A DNA stretch of 64,000 nucleotides from Candidatus Polarisedimenticolia bacterium (GTDB lineage: Bacteria; Acidobacteriota; Polarisedimenticolia; Gp22-AA2). The number at the start of each line of letters is the position of its first letter. Position 1 is the first letter of the stretch. Below, piece by piece: positions 1,372 to 35,180 of this stretch. The position numbers and the translations under genes are program-made. The notes under the pieces are model-generated. The model searched no databases. It was given only the letters and a program-made list of their open reading frames with translations, and was not told where the DNA came from. The DNA lies in contig DASYQE010000210.1 in assembly GCA_036005805.1 (NCBI GenBank), positions 17,061-81,060 on the forward strand, read 5' to 3'.

Positions 1372-1740
1372 TCAATCCTGCGGCGATGGCGGGTCGTCCG
1401 GGAAGGGGTCGAACTCCTCCTCGGCGGGAGCCACGGGCGCTTCCTTCTTCTTGAACAGCAGCCTCTCGACCGTCTGCCCCGCCTTCACGTGCCTCCGGAC
1501 GATCTCGGCGACATCACCGGGCTTCACGCCGCTGTAAACGACGCCTTCCGGATAGAGAATGACGTTCGGACCGTAGGTGCACAACCCGAAGCACAGGCAC
1601 TCGGTGTCCTTGACCGAGGTGCCGATCCCCTGGCGCACGAACTCCTTGCGGAATTCCTGCCGGATGCGCATCGAGCCGCGCTCGCCGCCGCAGCGGGGTC
1701 CGACGCAGATGAGGACGTGGCGGGAGTACGGAAGATTCAT
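1372..1740 (-). CDS. Thioredoxin-like (2Fe-2S) ferredoxin
   Basis: Cys pattern CVGPRC ... CLCFGLC typical of thioredoxin-like 2Fe-2S ferredoxins. Internal ATG (MNLPYSRH) chosen at 1740, which overlaps the upstream stop as ATGA. Confidence 0.7.
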   Translation of the reverse strand: MNLPYSRHVLICVGPRCGGERGSMRIRQEFRKEFVRQGIGTSVKDTECLCFGLCTYGPNVILYPEGVVYSGVKPGDVAEIVRRHVKAGQTVERLLFKKKEAPVAPAEEEFDPFPDDPPSPQD

Positions 1741-2201
1741 TCGACCTCGAGGACCGCCTGCAGCTGGAGGCACGCGTTCTGCGGCAGCTCGTCCACTCCG
1801 TGCGCCAGCCGCGTGTGCCTGCCGCGATCCCCGAAGACCTTGACGAACACCTCGGAGGCTCCTTCCATCACGCTGAACGCGTCGCTGAAACCGGGAGCGA
1901 CGGCGATGTGCCCGACCAGCTGCACGACCCGGCGGACGCGATCGAGATCGTCGATCGCCTGCTTGGCGGTCGCGAGGACGCTGAGGGCGGCGAGCCGCGC
2001 CGCCTCCGACCCCTGCTCGACCGTGACCTCGCGCCCGATGCGGCCGAGGTACTTGAGCTTGCCGCCTTCCTTGGGGAACTTTCCGGAGATGAAGAGGAGA
2101 TTCCCGGAGCGGACCGTCTGGACCCAGTTCCCCGTGGGCTTGCCGACCTCGGGAAGGCGCCAGCCGTTGGATTCGATCGTCTTCTCGATTTCACCAGGCA
2201 T
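1737..2201 (-). CDS. RidA/YjgF/TdcF family reactive-intermediate deaminase
   Basis: The C-terminal 154 aa of the long ORF match the RidA fold (GKFPKEGG...LPQNACLQLQAVLEVE). Start chosen at the ATG (MPGEIEK) preceded by a GGGAGGG Shine-Dalgarno. Confidence 0.7.
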   Translation of the reverse strand: MPGEIEKTIESNGWRLPEVGKPTGNWVQTVRSGNLLFISGKFPKEGGKLKYLGRIGREVTVEQGSEAARLAALSVLATAKQAIDDLDRVRRVVQLVGHIAVAPGFSDAFSVMEGASEVFVKVFGDRGRHTRLAHGVDELPQNACLQLQAVLEVE

Positions 2202-2354
2202 CGGATTCGTCCCTCCCGCGCCCCGGCAAACGGCTGCCGCGAGCGTCCCCGCGTTGTCGTTGCGTGTCATCTTAGCAGACTCCGCGAGGGGGAGAGGCGC
2301 AGGAAACGGCGCTGCGAGCCGTCTTGAGAGCCTCTCTCCCGAGGCGGAGCGGCG

Positions 2355-5653
<3,299 letters not shown>

Positions 5654-15972: not shown

Positions 15973-17541
15973 GTGAGCCGTCGTTCCATCCTGACCGGGG
16001 TCGTTTTTGTCCTTTCCGGAGGACTGGCAGGCGGACTCCTCGGCGGCCGATCCCTGGCCCTCCCGGAGCGGGGGGGGGATCCGGTCGGCACCTTCACCCA
16101 GCTCCTCTCGGTGGTCCAGTCCAGGGCCGCCGGCAACGTCGATTCCCAGGCTGTGATCGAGGGGGCCATCCGTGGGATGGTCCGAACCCTCGACCCGCAC
16201 ACGAACTACCTCGACGCCGAGGACTACAAGCACATGCTGGAGGAGCAGCAGGGCTCCTTCTCCGGGCTCGGCATCGTCATCTCCAAGCCGGGGCACGACA
16301 AGCCCCTCACGGTCATCTCCCCCCTCGACGGAACCCCGGCGTGGACCGCCGGGATCCGCGCCGGCGACGTCATCTCGCAGATCGAGGGGACCGACACGCT
16401 CGACATGGCGATCGATGAGGCGCTGCGGCGCCTGAAGGGACCGAAGGGGACGCAGGTCACCATCACGGTCACGCGCCCCGGGGACGAGGAGCCGCTCCAC
16501 TTCACGCTGACGCGCGACGACATCCCGACCTACAGCATCCGCTACGCCTTCATGGCGCGCCCGGGCGTCGGGTACATCAAGATCGAGAACTTCACCCGCA
16601 CCACCGAGCGCGAGATGGAGGAGAAGATCCAGGCGCTGCGTCGCGAGGGCATGACCCAGCTCGTGCTCGACCTGCGCCGCAACCCCGGCGGGCTTCTCGA
16701 GCAGGCGGTGCGCGTCGCCGATCAATTCCTGCGCAAGGGCCAGATGGTCGTCTACACGCAGGGACGCATCCGCGGTTCGGACATGGAATACCGGGCCTCC
16801 GGCGGCGGCCGCCATCCCGACCTGCCGATCGTCGTCCTGGTGGACAAGTTCAGCGCCAGCGCTTCGGAGATCGTCTCCGGCGCGCTGCAGGACCACGACC
16901 GCGCCCTCATCGTCGGCAAACCGACGTGGGGGAAGGGACTGGTGCAGACCGTTTACCCGCTGAGCCAGGGGACGGCCCTGGCGCTCACCACGGCGCGCTA
17001 CTACACGCCGAGCGGCCGGCTCATCCAGCGCGATTACAACTCCCTCGAGGATTACCTGTCCTACGAGGACAGCGACGCCACCGAGCCGCCGCATGGCGAG
17101 GTGCGGCAGACCGACGCCGGCCGCACGGTGTACGGCGGCGGAGGCATCCGGCCCGACGTCCTGGTGGACCGCGAGGCGACCTCCAAGTTCATCGACACGC
17201 TGCAGCGCAACCAGGCCTTCTTCAACTTCGCGGTGGACTACAACACCCACCACAAGGGGCTGGCCAAGGGCTTCGACGTCACGTCGGACATGGTGGACGA
17301 CTTCCTCTCGTTCCTCGACCGGCGCAAGGTGACCTGGACCAAGACGGAAGTCGACGCCGATCGGGACCGGCTGCGCTCGGAGATTCGCCAGGCGATCTCC
17401 TCCACGCTGTGGGGCATGGAAGAGGGCTACCGCGTGTCCATGGAGATCGACAAGCAGATGCAGCGCGCCCTCGAGCTGTTCCCCGAGGCGCAGCAGCTCG
17501 CCGCCCTGCCGCGGGCGCCGAAGCCGACCGTCTCGCAGTAG
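15973..17541 (+). CDS. ctpA: Carboxyl-terminal processing protease (S41 family, with PDZ domain)
   Basis: GTG start after AAGGAGG. S41 features include the PDZ region GLGIVIS... and LVLDLRRNPGGLLEQAV. Confidence 0.85.
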   Translation: MSRRSILTGVVFVLSGGLAGGLLGGRSLALPERGGDPVGTFTQLLSVVQSRAAGNVDSQAVIEGAIRGMVRTLDPHTNYLDAEDYKHMLEEQQGSFSGLGIVISKPGHDKPLTVISPLDGTPAWTAGIRAGDVISQIEGTDTLDMAIDEALRRLKGPKGTQVTITVTRPGDEEPLHFTLTRDDIPTYSIRYAFMARPGVGYIKIENFTRTTEREMEEKIQALRREGMTQLVLDLRRNPGGLLEQAVRVADQFLRKGQMVVYTQGRIRGSDMEYRASGGGRHPDLPIVVLVDKFSASASEIVSGALQDHDRALIVGKPTWGKGLVQTVYPLSQGTALALTTARYYTPSGRLIQRDYNSLEDYLSYEDSDATEPPHGEVRQTDAGRTVYGGGGIRPDVLVDREATSKFIDTLQRNQAFFNFAVDYNTHHKGLAKGFDVTSDMVDDFLSFLDRRKVTWTKTEVDADRDRLRSEIRQAISSTLWGMEEGYRVSMEIDKQMQRALELFPEAQQLAALPRAPKPTVSQ

Positions 17542-17626: not shown

Positions 17627-18298
17627 TCAGCCGGCCAGCGCGATGTGCCGGGTCTGCTCGGCGAACGGCCGGGCGTGGAACCGCCGCAGCTCAGCGTGGC
17701 GCGCCACCGCCGTCAGCCGATCGAGCCAGCGGACATAGCGTGACGCCAGGCGCGCCGCCTCGAGGTAGCGGACCGATTCGGCGTCGCCGCCGTCCGCGTA
17801 CTTCTCGAACAGGTGGTGCCTGGTCCAGGCGCGGTGGAACTCCGAGATGCGCCGGCGCCCCGTCAGGCGCCCGAGCAGGTGCAGCACGACGAGGTACTTG
17901 GTGACCAGCGCGTGCATCTCCAGCTCCAGCAGGCGCAGCGGACGGCCCGAGGCAAGGCGGCTGGCCACGGTCAGGAGGTGATCGAGCTCCTCGACGAGCA
18001 TGGCGAAGGCGTCGATGTTCCGATCGTCGAGGCCGCGCCGCGGATCGTGCCGCTCCAGATGGGTGACCAGCGCGTCGGGATAGTAAATGACCGCCCGCAT
18101 GCCTTCTCCCTCCGGCCGCAGCAGGAGGCGCGGCCGGCCCGGCTCCCCCGCCGTCTCCGCTCCGGCGCGCGCCATCGCCCGGAGGCCGGCATCGCCGATG
18201 AGATATGGCGCCACATCGCCGACGAGCGGCTCCAGGCCGTAGGTGCGCTCGATGATCGACTGCAGGGCGGGAACGAGGGGGAGCTGGCGGGCCGTCAC
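17627..18298 (-). CDS. Hypothetical protein of about 223 aa with no recognised domain, translationally coupled to the upstream AAA+ ATPase
   Basis: Its GTG start at 18298 overlaps the AAA+ stop as GTGA. An internal ATG (MRAVIYY) at 18100 is an alternative. The longer 505-aa track ORF is out of frame with the AAA+ gene and is rejected. Confidence 0.45.
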   Translation of the reverse strand: MTARQLPLVPALQSIIERTYGLEPLVGDVAPYLIGDAGLRAMARAGAETAGEPGRPRLLLRPEGEGMRAVIYYPDALVTHLERHDPRRGLDDRNIDAFAMLVEELDHLLTVASRLASGRPLRLLELEMHALVTKYLVVLHLLGRLTGRRRISEFHRAWTRHHLFEKYADGGDAESVRYLEAARLASRYVRWLDRLTAVARHAELRRFHARPFAEQTRHIALAG

Positions 18299-20202
18299 GC
18301 CGGCCTTTCGCGATAGACGAACTGATCCCGCCGGTAATCGATGACGAGGCGGCGTCCGCTCCGTTCCGGGCGGAGTTCCGCCTCGACCATGCCGGACAAC
18401 GCTTCGAGATCGACCGCCCGCTCCCCGCGCCGCGCCTCGCGGATCAGCCGGATCAGCCGGCGGCGCGCGTCGGTCATCGACAGGCCGGCCGGTCGCAGGC
18501 GGATCTGCACCTCGACGTTGCACACGCGATCGACGCGACCCACCAGGTTGCGCGCTCCTTCCTCGGGCGTGAATCCCTGCGCGAGGAGCGCCTGCCGGGC
18601 CGCCGGGCGCACTTCCAGTCGGACGCCGTGACGCTTCTGGAACCGCTCGGCCAGCCGGCCGATCTCGAGATCGAGGATCCGTCCCGCCGAGGCGCGCCCG
18701 AGCGGGCGGAAGTGGATGACCTGGAGGCGGGCCAGGAACTCGGGCGCCAGGCCGCGCCGCAGGGCGCGCGCCGCGTCGCGGCGCCGTCCCGACCCGCCCG
18801 CCGCGTATCCGATCGGCGCCTGGCGCATCTCGATCTCGCTGTAGCCGGCGTTCGAGGTGAAGGCGAGGAGAGTCGCCGGGAACTTCAGGAGCCGCCCGCG
18901 ATTGTCCATGGTCGAGCCGCGATCCATGAGGGACAGGAAGAACCGCATCAACTGCGGATGAGCCTTCTCCGCCTCGTCCACCAGCAGCACCGACAGGGGC
19001 GCCCGCCGGGCGCGATCGTGGAACTCGGCGAGCAGACCCTCCTCGTCGCTGCGGATGAAGCCGCGCGTCGCTCCCTTGAGCTCGTTGACGTCGGAGGGAT
19101 AGGCGTACTGCGGCCCCTCGAGGAGCAGGGTGGGGACCTCGCACCCCCAGGCGGCTTCGAGACGCCGCGCCAGCGACTCCATGAGATGGTTCTTCCCCAC
19201 CCCGGTCGGCCCCACGAGGAAATAGCTGAGCGGGCGCTGGCGATCCCGCATGCCGGCGGCGAAGACGCTCAGGTCGTCGCAGAGACGGTGGACCGCTTCG
19301 TCCTGGTCGACGACGTCCTCGCCCAGGTCCTGCCGCAGCTTCTCGAGATCGAGCGTGCGCAGGAGCAGCGTGCGCTCGAAGCGGGCGAGGCGCATGTCCC
19401 GGTCGGTCTCCGGTCCTTCCTCCTCGGCCGCGACCGCGGGCCGGGGCTGAGGCTCAGGCGCCGGGCGGGGGCCGCCGCGTTCCGCTCCACGACCGGCGCG
19501 GGGACGGCGGGGTGCAACCGGCGCCAGAGCGGCGCCCGAGGCGACCGGAGGCTCCGTCGCGGGCGGCGGGGCGGCCCGACCGTCGCCGCCCGGAAGGGAG
19601 GGAGCGGCCTCGGACTCGCGCCACGCCTGCAGGATGCGCGCGTACAGATCGAACCGGCTGGCGCACTGCCGCAGGAACAGCACCTCCTCGTCGAGCGGAA
19701 GCTGTCCGATGCGGTTGCGCTCGAAGTGCTCGCGCAGCATGCGATCGTCGGCGAGCAGATTGAGCACCTGTCCCGCCAGGTCATAGGAGCGCGGGCCGAT
19801 CTCCTGGAGCGGCAAGCCGCGATAGGTCGTCCGTCCGGCCACGCCGACGTCGTAGAGACACTTGTCGCCGCAGGAACGGAGCGCCTCCGGGACGCTCCAG
19901 ACCCTCAGCGCCGCGGCGTTACGCGTCGCATCGCTGGATTGGCCTGCCGGCAGCAGCCAGGCGGCCGGACGGGGGTCCCCCGCGAGCACCCGGTCCAGGG
20001 TCCCCTGGTCGTATTCACGCCGCAACAGCGGAGTCCTGCGGGTCAGAAGGTCGAGAAGGTGGCGGACATCGAGGTCGTCGAATGCGGCGGACCCGGCCAG
20101 ACGCTCCGCGAGTTCCCTGAGCCTGGCCTCCAAGGCTCCGGGAGTCAGATCCTCGAACGAACCGCGGTGAACCGTCATAAGGATCGGGGTCCATGTCTGC
20201 AC
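18295..20202 (-). CDS. Single-domain AAA+ ATPase (AAA_2 / ClpX-HslU-ClpB-D2-like) with an unknown roughly 200-aa N-terminal domain and a Pro/Ala-rich linker
   Basis: Walker A (FLVGPTGVGKNH), Walker B (VLLVDEAEKAHP), sensor-1 (FTSN), sensor-2 (EEGARNL) and a ClpB_D2-small-like C-terminus are present. The N-terminal 200 aa match nothing I recognise. Confidence 0.8.
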   Translation of the reverse strand: MQTWTPILMTVHRGSFEDLTPGALEARLRELAERLAGSAAFDDLDVRHLLDLLTRRTPLLRREYDQGTLDRVLAGDPRPAAWLLPAGQSSDATRNAAALRVWSVPEALRSCGDKCLYDVGVAGRTTYRGLPLQEIGPRSYDLAGQVLNLLADDRMLREHFERNRIGQLPLDEEVLFLRQCASRFDLYARILQAWRESEAAPSLPGGDGRAAPPPATEPPVASGAALAPVAPRRPRAGRGAERGGPRPAPEPQPRPAVAAEEEGPETDRDMRLARFERTLLLRTLDLEKLRQDLGEDVVDQDEAVHRLCDDLSVFAAGMRDRQRPLSYFLVGPTGVGKNHLMESLARRLEAAWGCEVPTLLLEGPQYAYPSDVNELKGATRGFIRSDEEGLLAEFHDRARRAPLSVLLVDEAEKAHPQLMRFFLSLMDRGSTMDNRGRLLKFPATLLAFTSNAGYSEIEMRQAPIGYAAGGSGRRRDAARALRRGLAPEFLARLQVIHFRPLGRASAGRILDLEIGRLAERFQKRHGVRLEVRPAARQALLAQGFTPEEGARNLVGRVDRVCNVEVQIRLRPAGLSMTDARRRLIRLIREARRGERAVDLEALSGMVEAELRPERSGRRLVIDYRRDQFVYRERPA

Positions 20203-20256
20203 CCCGCCGAAATCATAGGTCCCCCGTGGGGTCCCGCAAGTCCAGCCAGGCCTGAC

Positions 20257-20285
20257 TTGACAGTCAGAATTGTCGTCGGTACTAT
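20257..20285 (+). promoter_or_regulatory. groES sigma-70-like promoter TTGACA-N17-TACTAT
   Basis: Lies immediately upstream of, and abuts, the CIRCE element. Confidence 0.45.
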
Positions 20286-20311
20286 TGGCACTCGTCGGGA
20301 GAGAGTGCTAA
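20285..20311 (+). promoter_or_regulatory. CIRCE operator (HrcA binding site): TTGGCACTC-N9-GAGTGCTAA
   Basis: Matches the consensus TTAGCACTC-N9-GAGTGCTAA with one mismatch, about 55 nt upstream of the groES start. Confidence 0.85.
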
Positions 20312-20365: not shown

Positions 20366-22301
<1,936 letters not shown>

Positions 22302-22463: not shown

Positions 22464-23033
22464 ATGAGCGTGGCTTCGGCCGTCCGTCCCGTCCTGCTCG
22501 CAGGTTGTCTGGCGCTGGCGCTCGCCTGCAGTTCCGGCTCCGCCTCGGTCCATGCCGGCACCGGCACCATCCAGGTTCACATCACCGACGCGCCCATCGA
22601 CCTGTCCACGGTGGAGAAGGTGGAGGTGACGATCACCGACGTCATCGTCTACCCGGGCGACGACGATTCCGGCATGCCCTCGGTCGACCCGGCAGGTCCG
22701 ATCGTGCTGCTCACTCATCCGGAGACCTTCGACCTGCTCACGCTGACCGGAGGCGCCACCGATCTGCTCGCTTCGGGAGAAGTGCCCGCGGGCGACTACT
22801 CGCGCATCCGTCTGGAAGTCTCCGACGCCACGCTGACCTACAAGGACGGCACCACCGTGCCCCTCAAGATCGACTCCGGCAAGGTGGACGTGCCGATCCG
22901 CTTCCACGTCGCGCAGGACACCGTGAATCCCCTGACTCTGGATTTCGACGCCGGCGCCTCCGTGCAGGTCAACGAGACCGCCACCGACACGCTCATCCTC
23001 AGACCCGTGGTCACCCCGCTGCCGCATCCCTGA
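22464..23033 (+). CDS. Secreted lipoprotein, possibly DUF4382-like
   Basis: Signal peptide with a lipobox (LLAGC), then a beta-rich body (IQVHITDAP...VEKVEVTITDV). GAGGAGG Shine-Dalgarno upstream. Confidence 0.55.
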   Translation: MSVASAVRPVLLAGCLALALACSSGSASVHAGTGTIQVHITDAPIDLSTVEKVEVTITDVIVYPGDDDSGMPSVDPAGPIVLLTHPETFDLLTLTGGATDLLASGEVPAGDYSRIRLEVSDATLTYKDGTTVPLKIDSGKVDVPIRFHVAQDTVNPLTLDFDAGASVQVNETATDTLILRPVVTPLPHP

Positions 23034-23130: not shown

Positions 23131-23718
23131 ATGCTCCCGTCTCGCTCCGTCGGTCGGCTCCTTCCCGGCCTTCTCGCCATTGTGCCGCTCGCCTGCGGGC
23201 TTCACGGCGAAACGCAGAACGCTCCGACCACGGGAGGTGCACCCCCCGGAGTCGCCCAGGGTGCCGTGCAGGTGATGCTGAGCGGCACCGGCTTCGGGGG
23301 AGATGAGCTGGAGAACGTGGCCGCGCTCAACGTCACCGTCGCGGCGGTCACCGCCTTCCCCGACGAGGGGTCTGCGATACCCGGGGTGAGCGCACTCGGT
23401 CCCACCCCGCTGATCGGCGGACCCGTGACTTTCGATTTGTTCGCGCTGCAGGGGAACACGATGACGCTGGCCTCGGCGCCCGTGGCGGCCGCCGATTACA
23501 ACCGCGTCGAGCTGCAGTTCACCGGCGCCAGCGTCACCCTCCGGGACGGCGGGACCAACAACCTCGACATCGAGTCGGGGACGGTGGACGTGCCGCTCAA
23601 CGTCACGGTGAGTCCCGGAGAGACCGCCCCGGTCAGCCTGTCGATCAATGTGAGGGACTCGGTCCGCCTGAACCGGAACGACCAGGGCACCTTCCGGCCC
23701 ATCGTGCGCCTGCAGTGA
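23131..23718 (+). CDS. Secreted lipoprotein, paralog of the 22464..23033 gene
   Basis: Lipobox (VPLACG) and the same body architecture (VTFDLFAL...DYNRVELQF...DVPLNVTV). AAGGAG Shine-Dalgarno upstream. Confidence 0.55.
   Translation: MLPSRSVGRLLPGLLAIVPLACGLHGETQNAPTTGGAPPGVAQGAVQVMLSGTGFGGDELENVAALNVTVAAVTAFPDEGSAIPGVSALGPTPLIGGPVTFDLFALQGNTMTLASAPVAAADYNRVELQFTGASVTLRDGGTNNLDIESGTVDVPLNVTVSPGETAPVSLSINVRDSVRLNRNDQGTFRPIVRLQ

Positions 23719-32528: not shown

Positions 32529-35176
<2,648 letters not shown>

Positions 35177-35180
<4 letters not shown>

Follow-up and report, generated by a model that had tools for sequence, protein, structure and literature searches.

A two-gene locus beside groESL in the class Polarisedimenticolia combines a single-ring Clp-type ATPase carrying a Lys-Asn Walker A motif with an overlapping gene for a protein of predicted zincin-like fold

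Accounts of AAA+ proteolysis in bacteria usually name a few machines, ClpXP, ClpAP/CP, HslUV, Lon, FtsH and the proteasome. In the Clp machines, the ATPase inserts an IGL, IGF or VGF tripeptide, carried on a flexible loop, into hydrophobic pockets of ClpP, and clpP is normally unlinked to clpA or clpC. Here we describe a locus in a 64,000-nucleotide stretch of DNA (hereafter the window; positions 17,061 to 81,060 of contig DASYQE010000210.1, assembly GCA_036005805.1) from a metagenome-assembled genome (MAG) of Candidatus Polarisedimenticolia (Acidobacteriota), with a G+C content of about 70% throughout. It consists of a gene for a single-ring AAA+ protein of the Clp/Hsp100 type (hereafter the ATPase) and a second, overlapping gene for a smaller protein (hereafter the partner), the pair being divergent from groES and groEL. 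We tentatively read the locus as an unfoldase module of two genes that is linked to proteolysis and confined to the class Polarisedimenticolia, a reading to which we give somewhat less than an even chance. The coordinates of the features, all numbered within the window, are collected in Table 1.

Both genes are clearly real, judging from the many homologues recovered by searches with each protein: 738 ATPase-related proteins, of which the best 120 listed are full-length homologues or fragments thereof, and 359 homologues of the partner. A partner protein of identical sequence is on record from a Candidatus Polarisedimenticolia MAG. A first-pass annotation of this DNA had proposed the two open reading frames, their GTGA overlap, the GPTGVGKN motif and a divergent groES promoter with the controlling inverted repeat of chaperone expression (CIRCE), and all of these are present. 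It had also described a single AAA_2 plus ClpB_D2-small module with intact Walker B, sensor-1 and sensor-2, and this description holds. Pfam places AAA_2 at residues 326-495 of the ATPase (E 2.4e-24, 86.7 bits against a cut-off of 27) and ClpB_D2-small at residues 501-554 (36.1 bits against a cut-off of 21.9), both above the gathering thresholds. Clp_N and a first AAA domain are absent according to Pfam, so that the protein falls outside the ClpA, ClpB and ClpC equivalogs; NCBIfam models match residues 285-557 only, with ClpA D2 as the best hit (E 7e-44), and the equivalog scores are 150 bits for ClpA (cut-off 993) and 142 bits for ClpB (cut-off 1232). In a phmmer search of PDB sequences, residues 286-559 align to the D2 rings of ClpB, ClpC, ClpE, ClpA and Hsp104 with E values of 1e-36 to 1e-30, among them ClpB D2 at E 4.8e-36 and ClpC and ClpE at about E 1e-35. 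Skd3/CLPB is a weaker match (E 1e-20 to 1e-16), and similarity to ClpX is marginal (NCBIfam E 2e-4).

Residues were assigned through Thermus thermophilus ClpB alignment numbering and a MAFFT alignment with the D2 rings of Escherichia coli ClpA and ClpB, and their conservation was counted over 118 aligned sequences. The Walker B acidic pair (D409 in 117/118, E410 in 118/118), the sensor-1 asparagine N451 (118/118), the arginine finger R492, equivalent to R747 of T. thermophilus ClpB (117/118), and R551 of the sensor-2 motif G-A-R (117/118) are all nearly or strictly invariant. The same is true of the aromatic F382 (116/118) and the hydrophobic I383 (117/118) of the pore loop, which reads R-G-F-I-R here versus G-Y-V-G in ClpB and thus retains the aromatic-hydrophobic pair. 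Judged from these sequence features, the module is of the ClpA/B/C D2 type, with the residues of a threading unfoldase retained. The same window also encodes a canonical two-ring ClpB-like protein of 883 aa (32529..35180, plus strand), about 12 kb from the ATPase gene, with Clp_N, AAA, AAA_lid_9, AAA_2 and D2-small domains; both of its rings have GKT, and its pore loop reads GYVG. Since this canonical ClpB is present and is only 34% identical to the ATPase over D2, the latter is a diverged paralogue in its own right, not a fragment of a gene. Beyond D2-small, the ATPase extends for a further ~75 aa (residues 560-635; 18295..18522, minus strand) that are partly conserved and to which nothing corresponds in ClpA or ClpB of E. 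coli; they include R-E-A-R-R-G and, close to the C-terminus, a conserved F-x-Y. A C-terminal docking motif of the HbYX type was considered and discarded, the conserved F-x-Y lying at least 5 residues from a variable C-terminus.

The Walker A motif departs from the canonical form throughout the family. It reads GPTGVGKN[H/Y] in every homologue, at identities down to 42%; a motif search found GKN in all 120 homologues listed, the alignment shows it in all 118 sequences, and the canonical GxxxxGK[T/S] occurs neither in the ATPase nor in any aligned homologue. The Lys-Asn variant singled out by the first-pass annotation is therefore a fixed character of the family.

The part of the protein preceding the ring is equally distinctive. 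Residues 1-280 gave no Pfam match. Across the family, residues 1-200 show conservation, as in the stretches C-G-D-K-C-L-Y-D-V-G and E-E-V-L-F-L-R-Q-C, and an exhaustive phmmer search with this N-terminal domain against 1.84 billion representative proteins retrieved 38 clusters only. The matching proteins of 590-675 aa all have the domain at their N-terminus; the others are shorter proteins or fragments, together with two weak matches in repetitive proteins of ~1,000 aa. The domain thus belongs to no known family, in line with its having gone unrecognised at first pass, and the Pro/Ala-rich linker of about 70 aa recorded then corresponds to residues 196-272 (22% Pro, 21% Ala and 13% Arg). The linker is rich in Pro, Ala, Arg, Glu and Gly, and its columns are gap-rich and unconserved over the 118 sequences. 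A possible metal site in the N-terminal domain was dropped, as the family does not conserve C111 and C115.

A second family-wide signature lies in the loop between sensor-1 and the arginine finger, where the ATPase carries P-I-G-Y (residues 463-466). The isoleucine is conserved in 117/118 sequences and the glycine in 118/118, and the third position is Tyr in 103/118 and Phe in 14/118, within flanks that are variable. The tripeptide I-G-[Y/F] aligns to the IGL loop of E. coli ClpA, two columns off; E. coli ClpB has no such motif there, and neither has the canonical ClpB of the window. Weibezahn et al. reportedly found in 2004 that grafting the ClpA IGL segment onto ClpB D2 suffices for ClpP binding, and this ClpA-loop/ClpB chimera is among the PDB-sequence matches of the ATPase (5ofo). 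Because of the conserved I-G-[Y/F] at the position of the ClpA IGL, the ATPase family looks, from its sequence, built for docking onto a peptidase. The first-pass annotation had seen no recognisable IGF loop region, a statement that the 118-sequence alignment overturns. Its preference for a chaperone rather than a protease partner, which was drawn from that statement and from the absence of ClpP in the window, is not supported in view of the tripeptide, taken together with the predicted fold of the partner protein.

The AlphaFold model of the partner is confident (predicted local distance difference test score, pLDDT, 90.5; predicted template modelling score, pTM, 0.88). From the N-terminus it runs through two short helices, the beta-hairpin 57-72, another short helix, the long helices 95-116 and 123-146, and four further helices; the protein is thus mostly helical, as had been proposed, although not purely so because of the hairpin in the model. 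Its fold matches include M3 oligopeptidases, M30, M36, M32, thermolysin (7.6), pseudolysin, M13, M49, M60, M61 and M9, with alignments spanning 150-180 of the 223 residues, and the element common to these matches is the zincin catalytic core. Foldseek of the model against PDB gave no match. Two marginal sequence matches were set aside: one to DUF6221 (E 0.023), found in 1/49 family members and attributed to chance, and an equally marginal one to AbiEi (E 0.045, 11.9 bits).

The positions that are invariant in 121/121 partner sequences include G35, R61, P74, L81, E82, P86, N94, F98, E103, E104, D106, H107, L108 and H129, followed by E127, K134, R114 and R119 (120/121 each) and E125 (119/121). 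The motif E-E-[LV]-D-H is present in 121/121 sequences, none of which has the canonical HExxH. E103-E104-x-D106-H107 occupies the central part of the first long helix and E125-x-E127-x-H129 opens the second, so that two glutamates at the start of helix 123-146, E125 at +18 and E127 at +20 from H107, are candidate third ligands. The spacing from H107 to E127 (+20) may be compared with that from H301 to E320 in E. coli PepN (+19) and from H146 to E166 in thermolysin (+20), and the partner motif can be read as EExxH-x19-E. From helix order and motif spacing in the model, EExDH and ExH would occupy the same two helices as the gluzincin HExxH and its third-ligand Glu. The partner accordingly looks, as modelled, like a zincin-derived enzyme or pseudo-enzyme. 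The literature found on EExxH concerns only the transporters ZIP8 and ZIP14, in which EEXXH replaces HEXXH and is thought to broaden metal specificity (PMC5661630); this is an analogy and not evidence for the present protein.

To assess the distribution of the pair, 185,579 species, each represented by a single genome, were scanned with a profile of the partner. The 55 loci recovered belong essentially all to Acidobacteriota/Polarisedimenticolia (gp22, Mor1), and the few MAGs bearing other labels carry near-identical sequences. An ATPase gene coding for both the N-terminal domain and the D2 ring lies directly upstream of the partner gene in 43 of ~51 informative species genomes; the 4-bp NTGA overlap is found in 40/48 loci examined, and a 14-nt overlap in 4 more. 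The groES-groEL genes are divergent upstream in essentially every locus with sufficient sequence, and a CIRCE core lies between in most: it occupies the same position in L002, L003, L005-L008 and L011 (loci are numbered with the prefix L) and in most of the species-genome loci. Downstream neighbours are often conserved as well, and include a ctpA-type S41 peptidase, tatA/tatC, a Kdo-type kinase and heptosyltransferases. The first-pass view of an ATPase coupled to its neighbour is thus borne out as far as conserved adjacency and translational coupling go.

Two types of exception are informative. In one lineage (GCA_020073205.1, labelled Terriglobia/Acidobacteriia), the pair (L009, 6001..8588; L010, 5547..8134) lies away from groESL, keeps the 4-bp overlap, and is divergent from an ArsR-type helix-turn-helix gene and an SBF-family transporter gene; a scan of both loci for the exact CIRCE core gave no match. 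Because the pair stays together when relocated, the link between ATPase and partner is independent of groES. Conversely, eight species genomes (L016, L017, L019, L022, L023, L025, L028 and L029) have the partner gene without the ATPase gene at this locus, back-to-back with groES and CIRCE, an arrangement checked by eye in L017. In a neighbour-joining tree of the partner, a short protein, these eight loci are scattered within one subclade, which tentatively suggests repeated loss of the ATPase there. As a consequence, the obligate ATPase-plus-adaptor pairing implied at first pass is weakened. Four loci bear labels from outside Acidobacteriota: L013 (DASRAU010000004.1), L017, L020 and L054, from MAGs labelled Verrucomicrobiia, Binatia, Dongiaceae and Poribacteria. 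The partner of L013 is 91% identical to that of the window, with 90-100% identity over the whole locus, and that of L054 is just 35% identical. These labels probably reflect mis-binned contigs or wrong assignments and not true occurrences outside the phylum. In L011, which has the most divergent ATPase, the called gene (1466..3487) starts inside the CIRCE repeat (1456..1476), and this gene call probably starts too early.

In the window, the CIRCE element, TTGGCACTC-N9-GAGTGCTAA, lies within the 163-bp divergent gap. TTGACA-17-TACTAT is the sole promoter match in the scanned region (mean of 0.1 in shuffled sequences), and no minus-strand promoter for the ATPase gene was predicted there. The ATPase gene starts 83 bp downstream of CIRCE, which, however, is part of the divergent groES promoter. 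Heat-shock co-regulation of the pair, as proposed at first pass, is plausible given the short shared intergenic region, and the fixed back-to-back arrangement with CIRCE and the groES promoter hints at a role in proteostasis or heat stress.

In the proteolysis-linked module that we favour, the ATPase would form a hexamer, its helical N-terminal domain would recruit substrate or the partner from the end of the flexible Pro/Ala linker, and ATP-driven translocation would feed the chain into a peptidase that serves as docking site for the I-G-[Y/F] loops. The likeliest candidate for this peptidase is a ClpP whose gene lies at another place in the genome; a second candidate is the partner. The partner would be co-produced with the ATPase and would process or select clients, either as a hydrolase dependent on a metal or as a protein derived from such an enzyme, and would also be able to act alone. 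Several observations weigh against this model. The published ClpP-docking consensus is (L/I/V)-G-(F/L) (PMC8745299); Tyr falls outside it, and the exact IGF is found in just 14/118 sequences. No ClpP or HslV was detected by tblastn with the E. coli proteins in the window, as the first-pass annotation had said, or in the related loci examined, and the absence of ClpP counts here. The partner gave no significant Pfam, NCBIfam, PADLOC or PDB-sequence match, even in hmmsearch with the family profile and in Pfam scans of each member, and hhalign of the partner against the catalytic domain of E. coli PepN returned a probability of 0.1. The placement of EExDH on the active-site helix of zincins follows from helix order and spacing in the model. 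Moreover, all sequences have Glu in place of the first His of HExxH, and the partner could be inactive or use another metal. A Lys-Asn motor may be slow or may need activation; a T-to-N change in Walker A lowers ClpB activity according to Nagy et al., as cited in PMC5628414. Finally, because eight genomes keep the partner alone, its function is not strictly dependent on the ATPase and the two proteins are not obligate partners.

The rather unlikely alternative closest to the first-pass view is a stand-alone chaperone or disaggregase, peptidase-free like Skd3/CLPB, with the partner as adaptor, regulator or preferred client. A helical N-terminal domain, a linker and one D2-type ring parallel Skd3, which was itself among the PDB-sequence matches; the module adjoins groESL, no peptidase gene is nearby, and the partner lacks a canonical HExxH. 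A strict I-G-[Y/F] in an otherwise variable loop would, however, remain unexplained in a peptidase-free machine, the invariant acidic and His residues and the zincin-type predicted fold of the partner look enzymatic and not adaptor-like, and a dedicated adaptor would not be expected to outlive its ATPase, yet eight genomes have the partner only. A protease-linked role is, in our view, no less likely than that of a pure chaperone. Such a role could also be self-contained, as in a split FtsH, in which I-G-[Y/F] would dock on a ring of partner subunits and cleavage would occur at the EExxH site without any ClpP. The co-production implied by the 4-bp translational coupling, the zincin-like predicted fold with its metal-site-like motif, the integrity of the pair when relocated and the lack of a nearby ClpP are all consistent with this arrangement. 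Ring formation by the partner is an assumption, though, an EExxH site may not be catalytically competent, and persistence of the partner without the ATPase in eight genomes fits poorly; we consider a split FtsH unlikely. Quite doubtful is the more specific form of a new class of two-component ATP-dependent protease, in which a Lys-Asn hexamer of the ClpA-D2 type would sit on an oligomeric minimal zincin-fold subunit with a Glu-Glu-x-x-His...Glu site, as a Clp-derived analogue of FtsH beside groESL.

Two further explanations are improbable. GKN, which all family members share, is the form of Walker A found in Torsins (PMC5628414), and a small protein is encoded in tight coupling, as would suit a poor Lys-Asn ATPase switched on by its partner in the manner of Torsin with LAP1/LULL1. 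The ATPase, however, has its own conserved arginine finger (R492, 117/118), so that no trans-acting arginine is needed, its sensor-2 is an ordinary G-A-R, and the predicted fold of the partner is zincin-like and not that of a degenerate AAA+ domain. It also has an aromatic pore loop, which Torsins are not known to have, and TorsinA is not among its PDB-sequence matches at E <= 0.01. In view of the arginine finger, the pore loop and the missing TorsinA match we reject membership of the Torsin family, and a Torsin-like regulation is very unlikely. More improbable still is a mobile anti-phage or conflict module made of an AAA+ ATPase and a peptidase-like effector. The ATPase does match the PADLOC candidate PDC-M37B (E 1.3e-18) and, more weakly, DolB, but these matches cover the generic AAA_2 region only and the partner has no meaningful PADLOC match. 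The housekeeping neighbourhood (groESL, ctpA, tatAC and lipopolysaccharide genes) is fixed class-wide, the phylogeny follows the lineage, and the G+C content of the pair is in line with the remainder of the window, all of which argue against a mobile origin.

Table 1. Position of the two genes, their motifs and the adjoining groESL region in the window
Feature	Coordinates	Strand	Basis or remark
ATPase gene, 635 aa, single-ring Clp/Hsp100-type AAA+	18295..20202	-	Open reading frame; Pfam AAA_2 and ClpB_D2-small
Partner gene, 223 aa, predicted zincin-like (thermolysin-type) fold	17627..18298	-	Open reading frame; predicted structure
GTGA stop/start overlap, ATPase TGA with partner GTG	18295..18298	-	Sequence; couples both genes
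N-terminal domain of the ATPase, ~residues 1-200, all-alpha, lineage-restricted	19603..20202	-	
Pro/Ala-rich linker, residues 196-272, variable length	19387..19617	-	Composition; 118-sequence alignment
Walker A GPTGVGKN, residues 331-338, Asn replacing Thr/Ser	19189..19212	-	Motif search; alignment
Pore-1 loop R-G-F-I-R, residues 380-384	19051..19065	-	Aligned to GYVG, ClpB/ClpA D2
Walker B Asp409-Glu410	18973..18978	-	Aligned to ClpB DE
P-I-G-Y, residues 463-466, candidate peptidase-docking tripeptide in sensor-1/Arg finger loop	18805..18816	-	Alignment
Arg finger R492 (T. thermophilus ClpB R747)	18727..18729	-	Alignment numbering
Sensor-2 Arg551 in G-A-R	18550..18552	-	Alignment
Partner motif E103-E104-L-D106-H107, long helix 95-116	17978..17992	-	121-sequence conservation; model helices
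Partner motif E125-L-E127-M-H129, start of helix 123-146	17912..17926	-	121-sequence conservation; model helices
groES sigma-70-type promoter TTGACA-17-TACTAT (20257..20285), directly followed by CIRCE (20285..20311)	20257..20311	+	
groES (20366..20653) and groEL (20670..22301), divergent from the pair	20366..22301	+	

Some gene boundaries deserve comment. For the ATPase, the GTG at 20202 gives 635 aa, the NCBI record has 612 aa, and an ATG is present at residue 9 (20176..20178); homologues align from residue ~13-17 onward, and the true start may lie a few codons downstream of the GTG, within the candidate region 20134..20202 (minus strand). The mechanical open reading frame in the frame of the partner is 505 aa long (17627..19144, minus strand) and reaches far into the ATPase gene, with protein-level conservation confined to the last 223 codons; the DNA being 70% G+C, length of an open reading frame alone is misleading here. 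No structured RNA of any Rfam family was found anywhere in the window. Directly 3' of groEL lie two tandem DUF4382 paralogues (22464..23033 and 23131..23718, plus strand), which have the same order in L002.

Source annotations of the two genes read only "AAA family ATPase", "MoxR-like ATPase" or "hypothetical protein", and the titles and abstracts found on the class Polarisedimenticolia mention nothing of this gene pair, so that "undescribed", as the module was first called, appears apt. The Clp/Hsp100 type itself is known; what is new is the combination of a single D2 ring, GKN, IG[Y/F], the N-terminal domain and a coupled EExxH protein with a predicted zincin fold. AAA+ proteolysis would gain a further member, or a new accessory logic, from a conserved class-wide unfoldase that unites a new recognition domain, a single ClpA/B-D2 ring with a docking-type tripeptide, and a coupled protein of zincin fold. 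The family also offers a natural test of the Lys-Asn P-loop, a variant known mainly from the poorly understood Torsins, which here coexists with an intact arginine finger and pore loop. An invariant EExxH on a zincin-type fold would extend the known range of metalloproteases, or exemplify a pseudo-protease turned cofactor. The family is confined to one essentially uncultured class, and everything beyond sequence and predicted fold is inferred.

Among the known systems, the D2 ring of ClpA/ClpC shares with the ATPase the AAA_2 and D2-small domains, pore loop, Walker B, sensor-1, arginine finger and sensor-2, and a hydrophobic X-G-aromatic tripeptide between sensor-1 and the arginine finger. The ATPase differs in having one ring, no Clp_N, a new N-terminal domain and a Pro/Ala-rich linker, GKN instead of GKT, and mostly IGY instead of IGL/VGF. 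ClpX likewise has a single AAA+ ring, an N-terminal domain and an IGF-type loop, the exact IGF being that of the 14 Phe-bearing family members, whereas the ATPase lacks its zinc-binding N-terminal domain and has a module of ClpA/B D2 descent. In the mitochondrial disaggregase Skd3 (human CLPB), a helical N-terminal domain is also followed by one nucleotide-binding domain of the ClpB-D2 type; its ankyrin repeats are not found in the N-terminal domain of the ATPase, it has no coupled partner gene, its Walker A is canonical, and it is not known to carry a ClpP-type tripeptide.

Torsin with LAP1/LULL1 offers a single D2-like ring, GxxxxGKN and a small partner protein, and differs from the present bacterial cytosolic protein, which has its own arginine finger, an aromatic pore loop and a zincin-like instead of an AAA+-like partner; there is no detectable sequence relationship between Torsin and the ATPase beyond their common clade. 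FtsH, in which AAA+ is fused to an M41 zincin, similarly combines an ATP-driven unfoldase with a zincin-fold domain, predicted in our case, but here the two are encoded by separate genes and the AAA+ module is of the HCLR/Clp clade and not of the classic AAA clade. Finally, the gluzincins (M1, M4 thermolysin) resemble the partner, as modelled, in two consecutive helices and a spacing like that of HExxH-x19-E, from which it differs by EExxH in place of HExxH and by having no sequence-level membership in any peptidase family.

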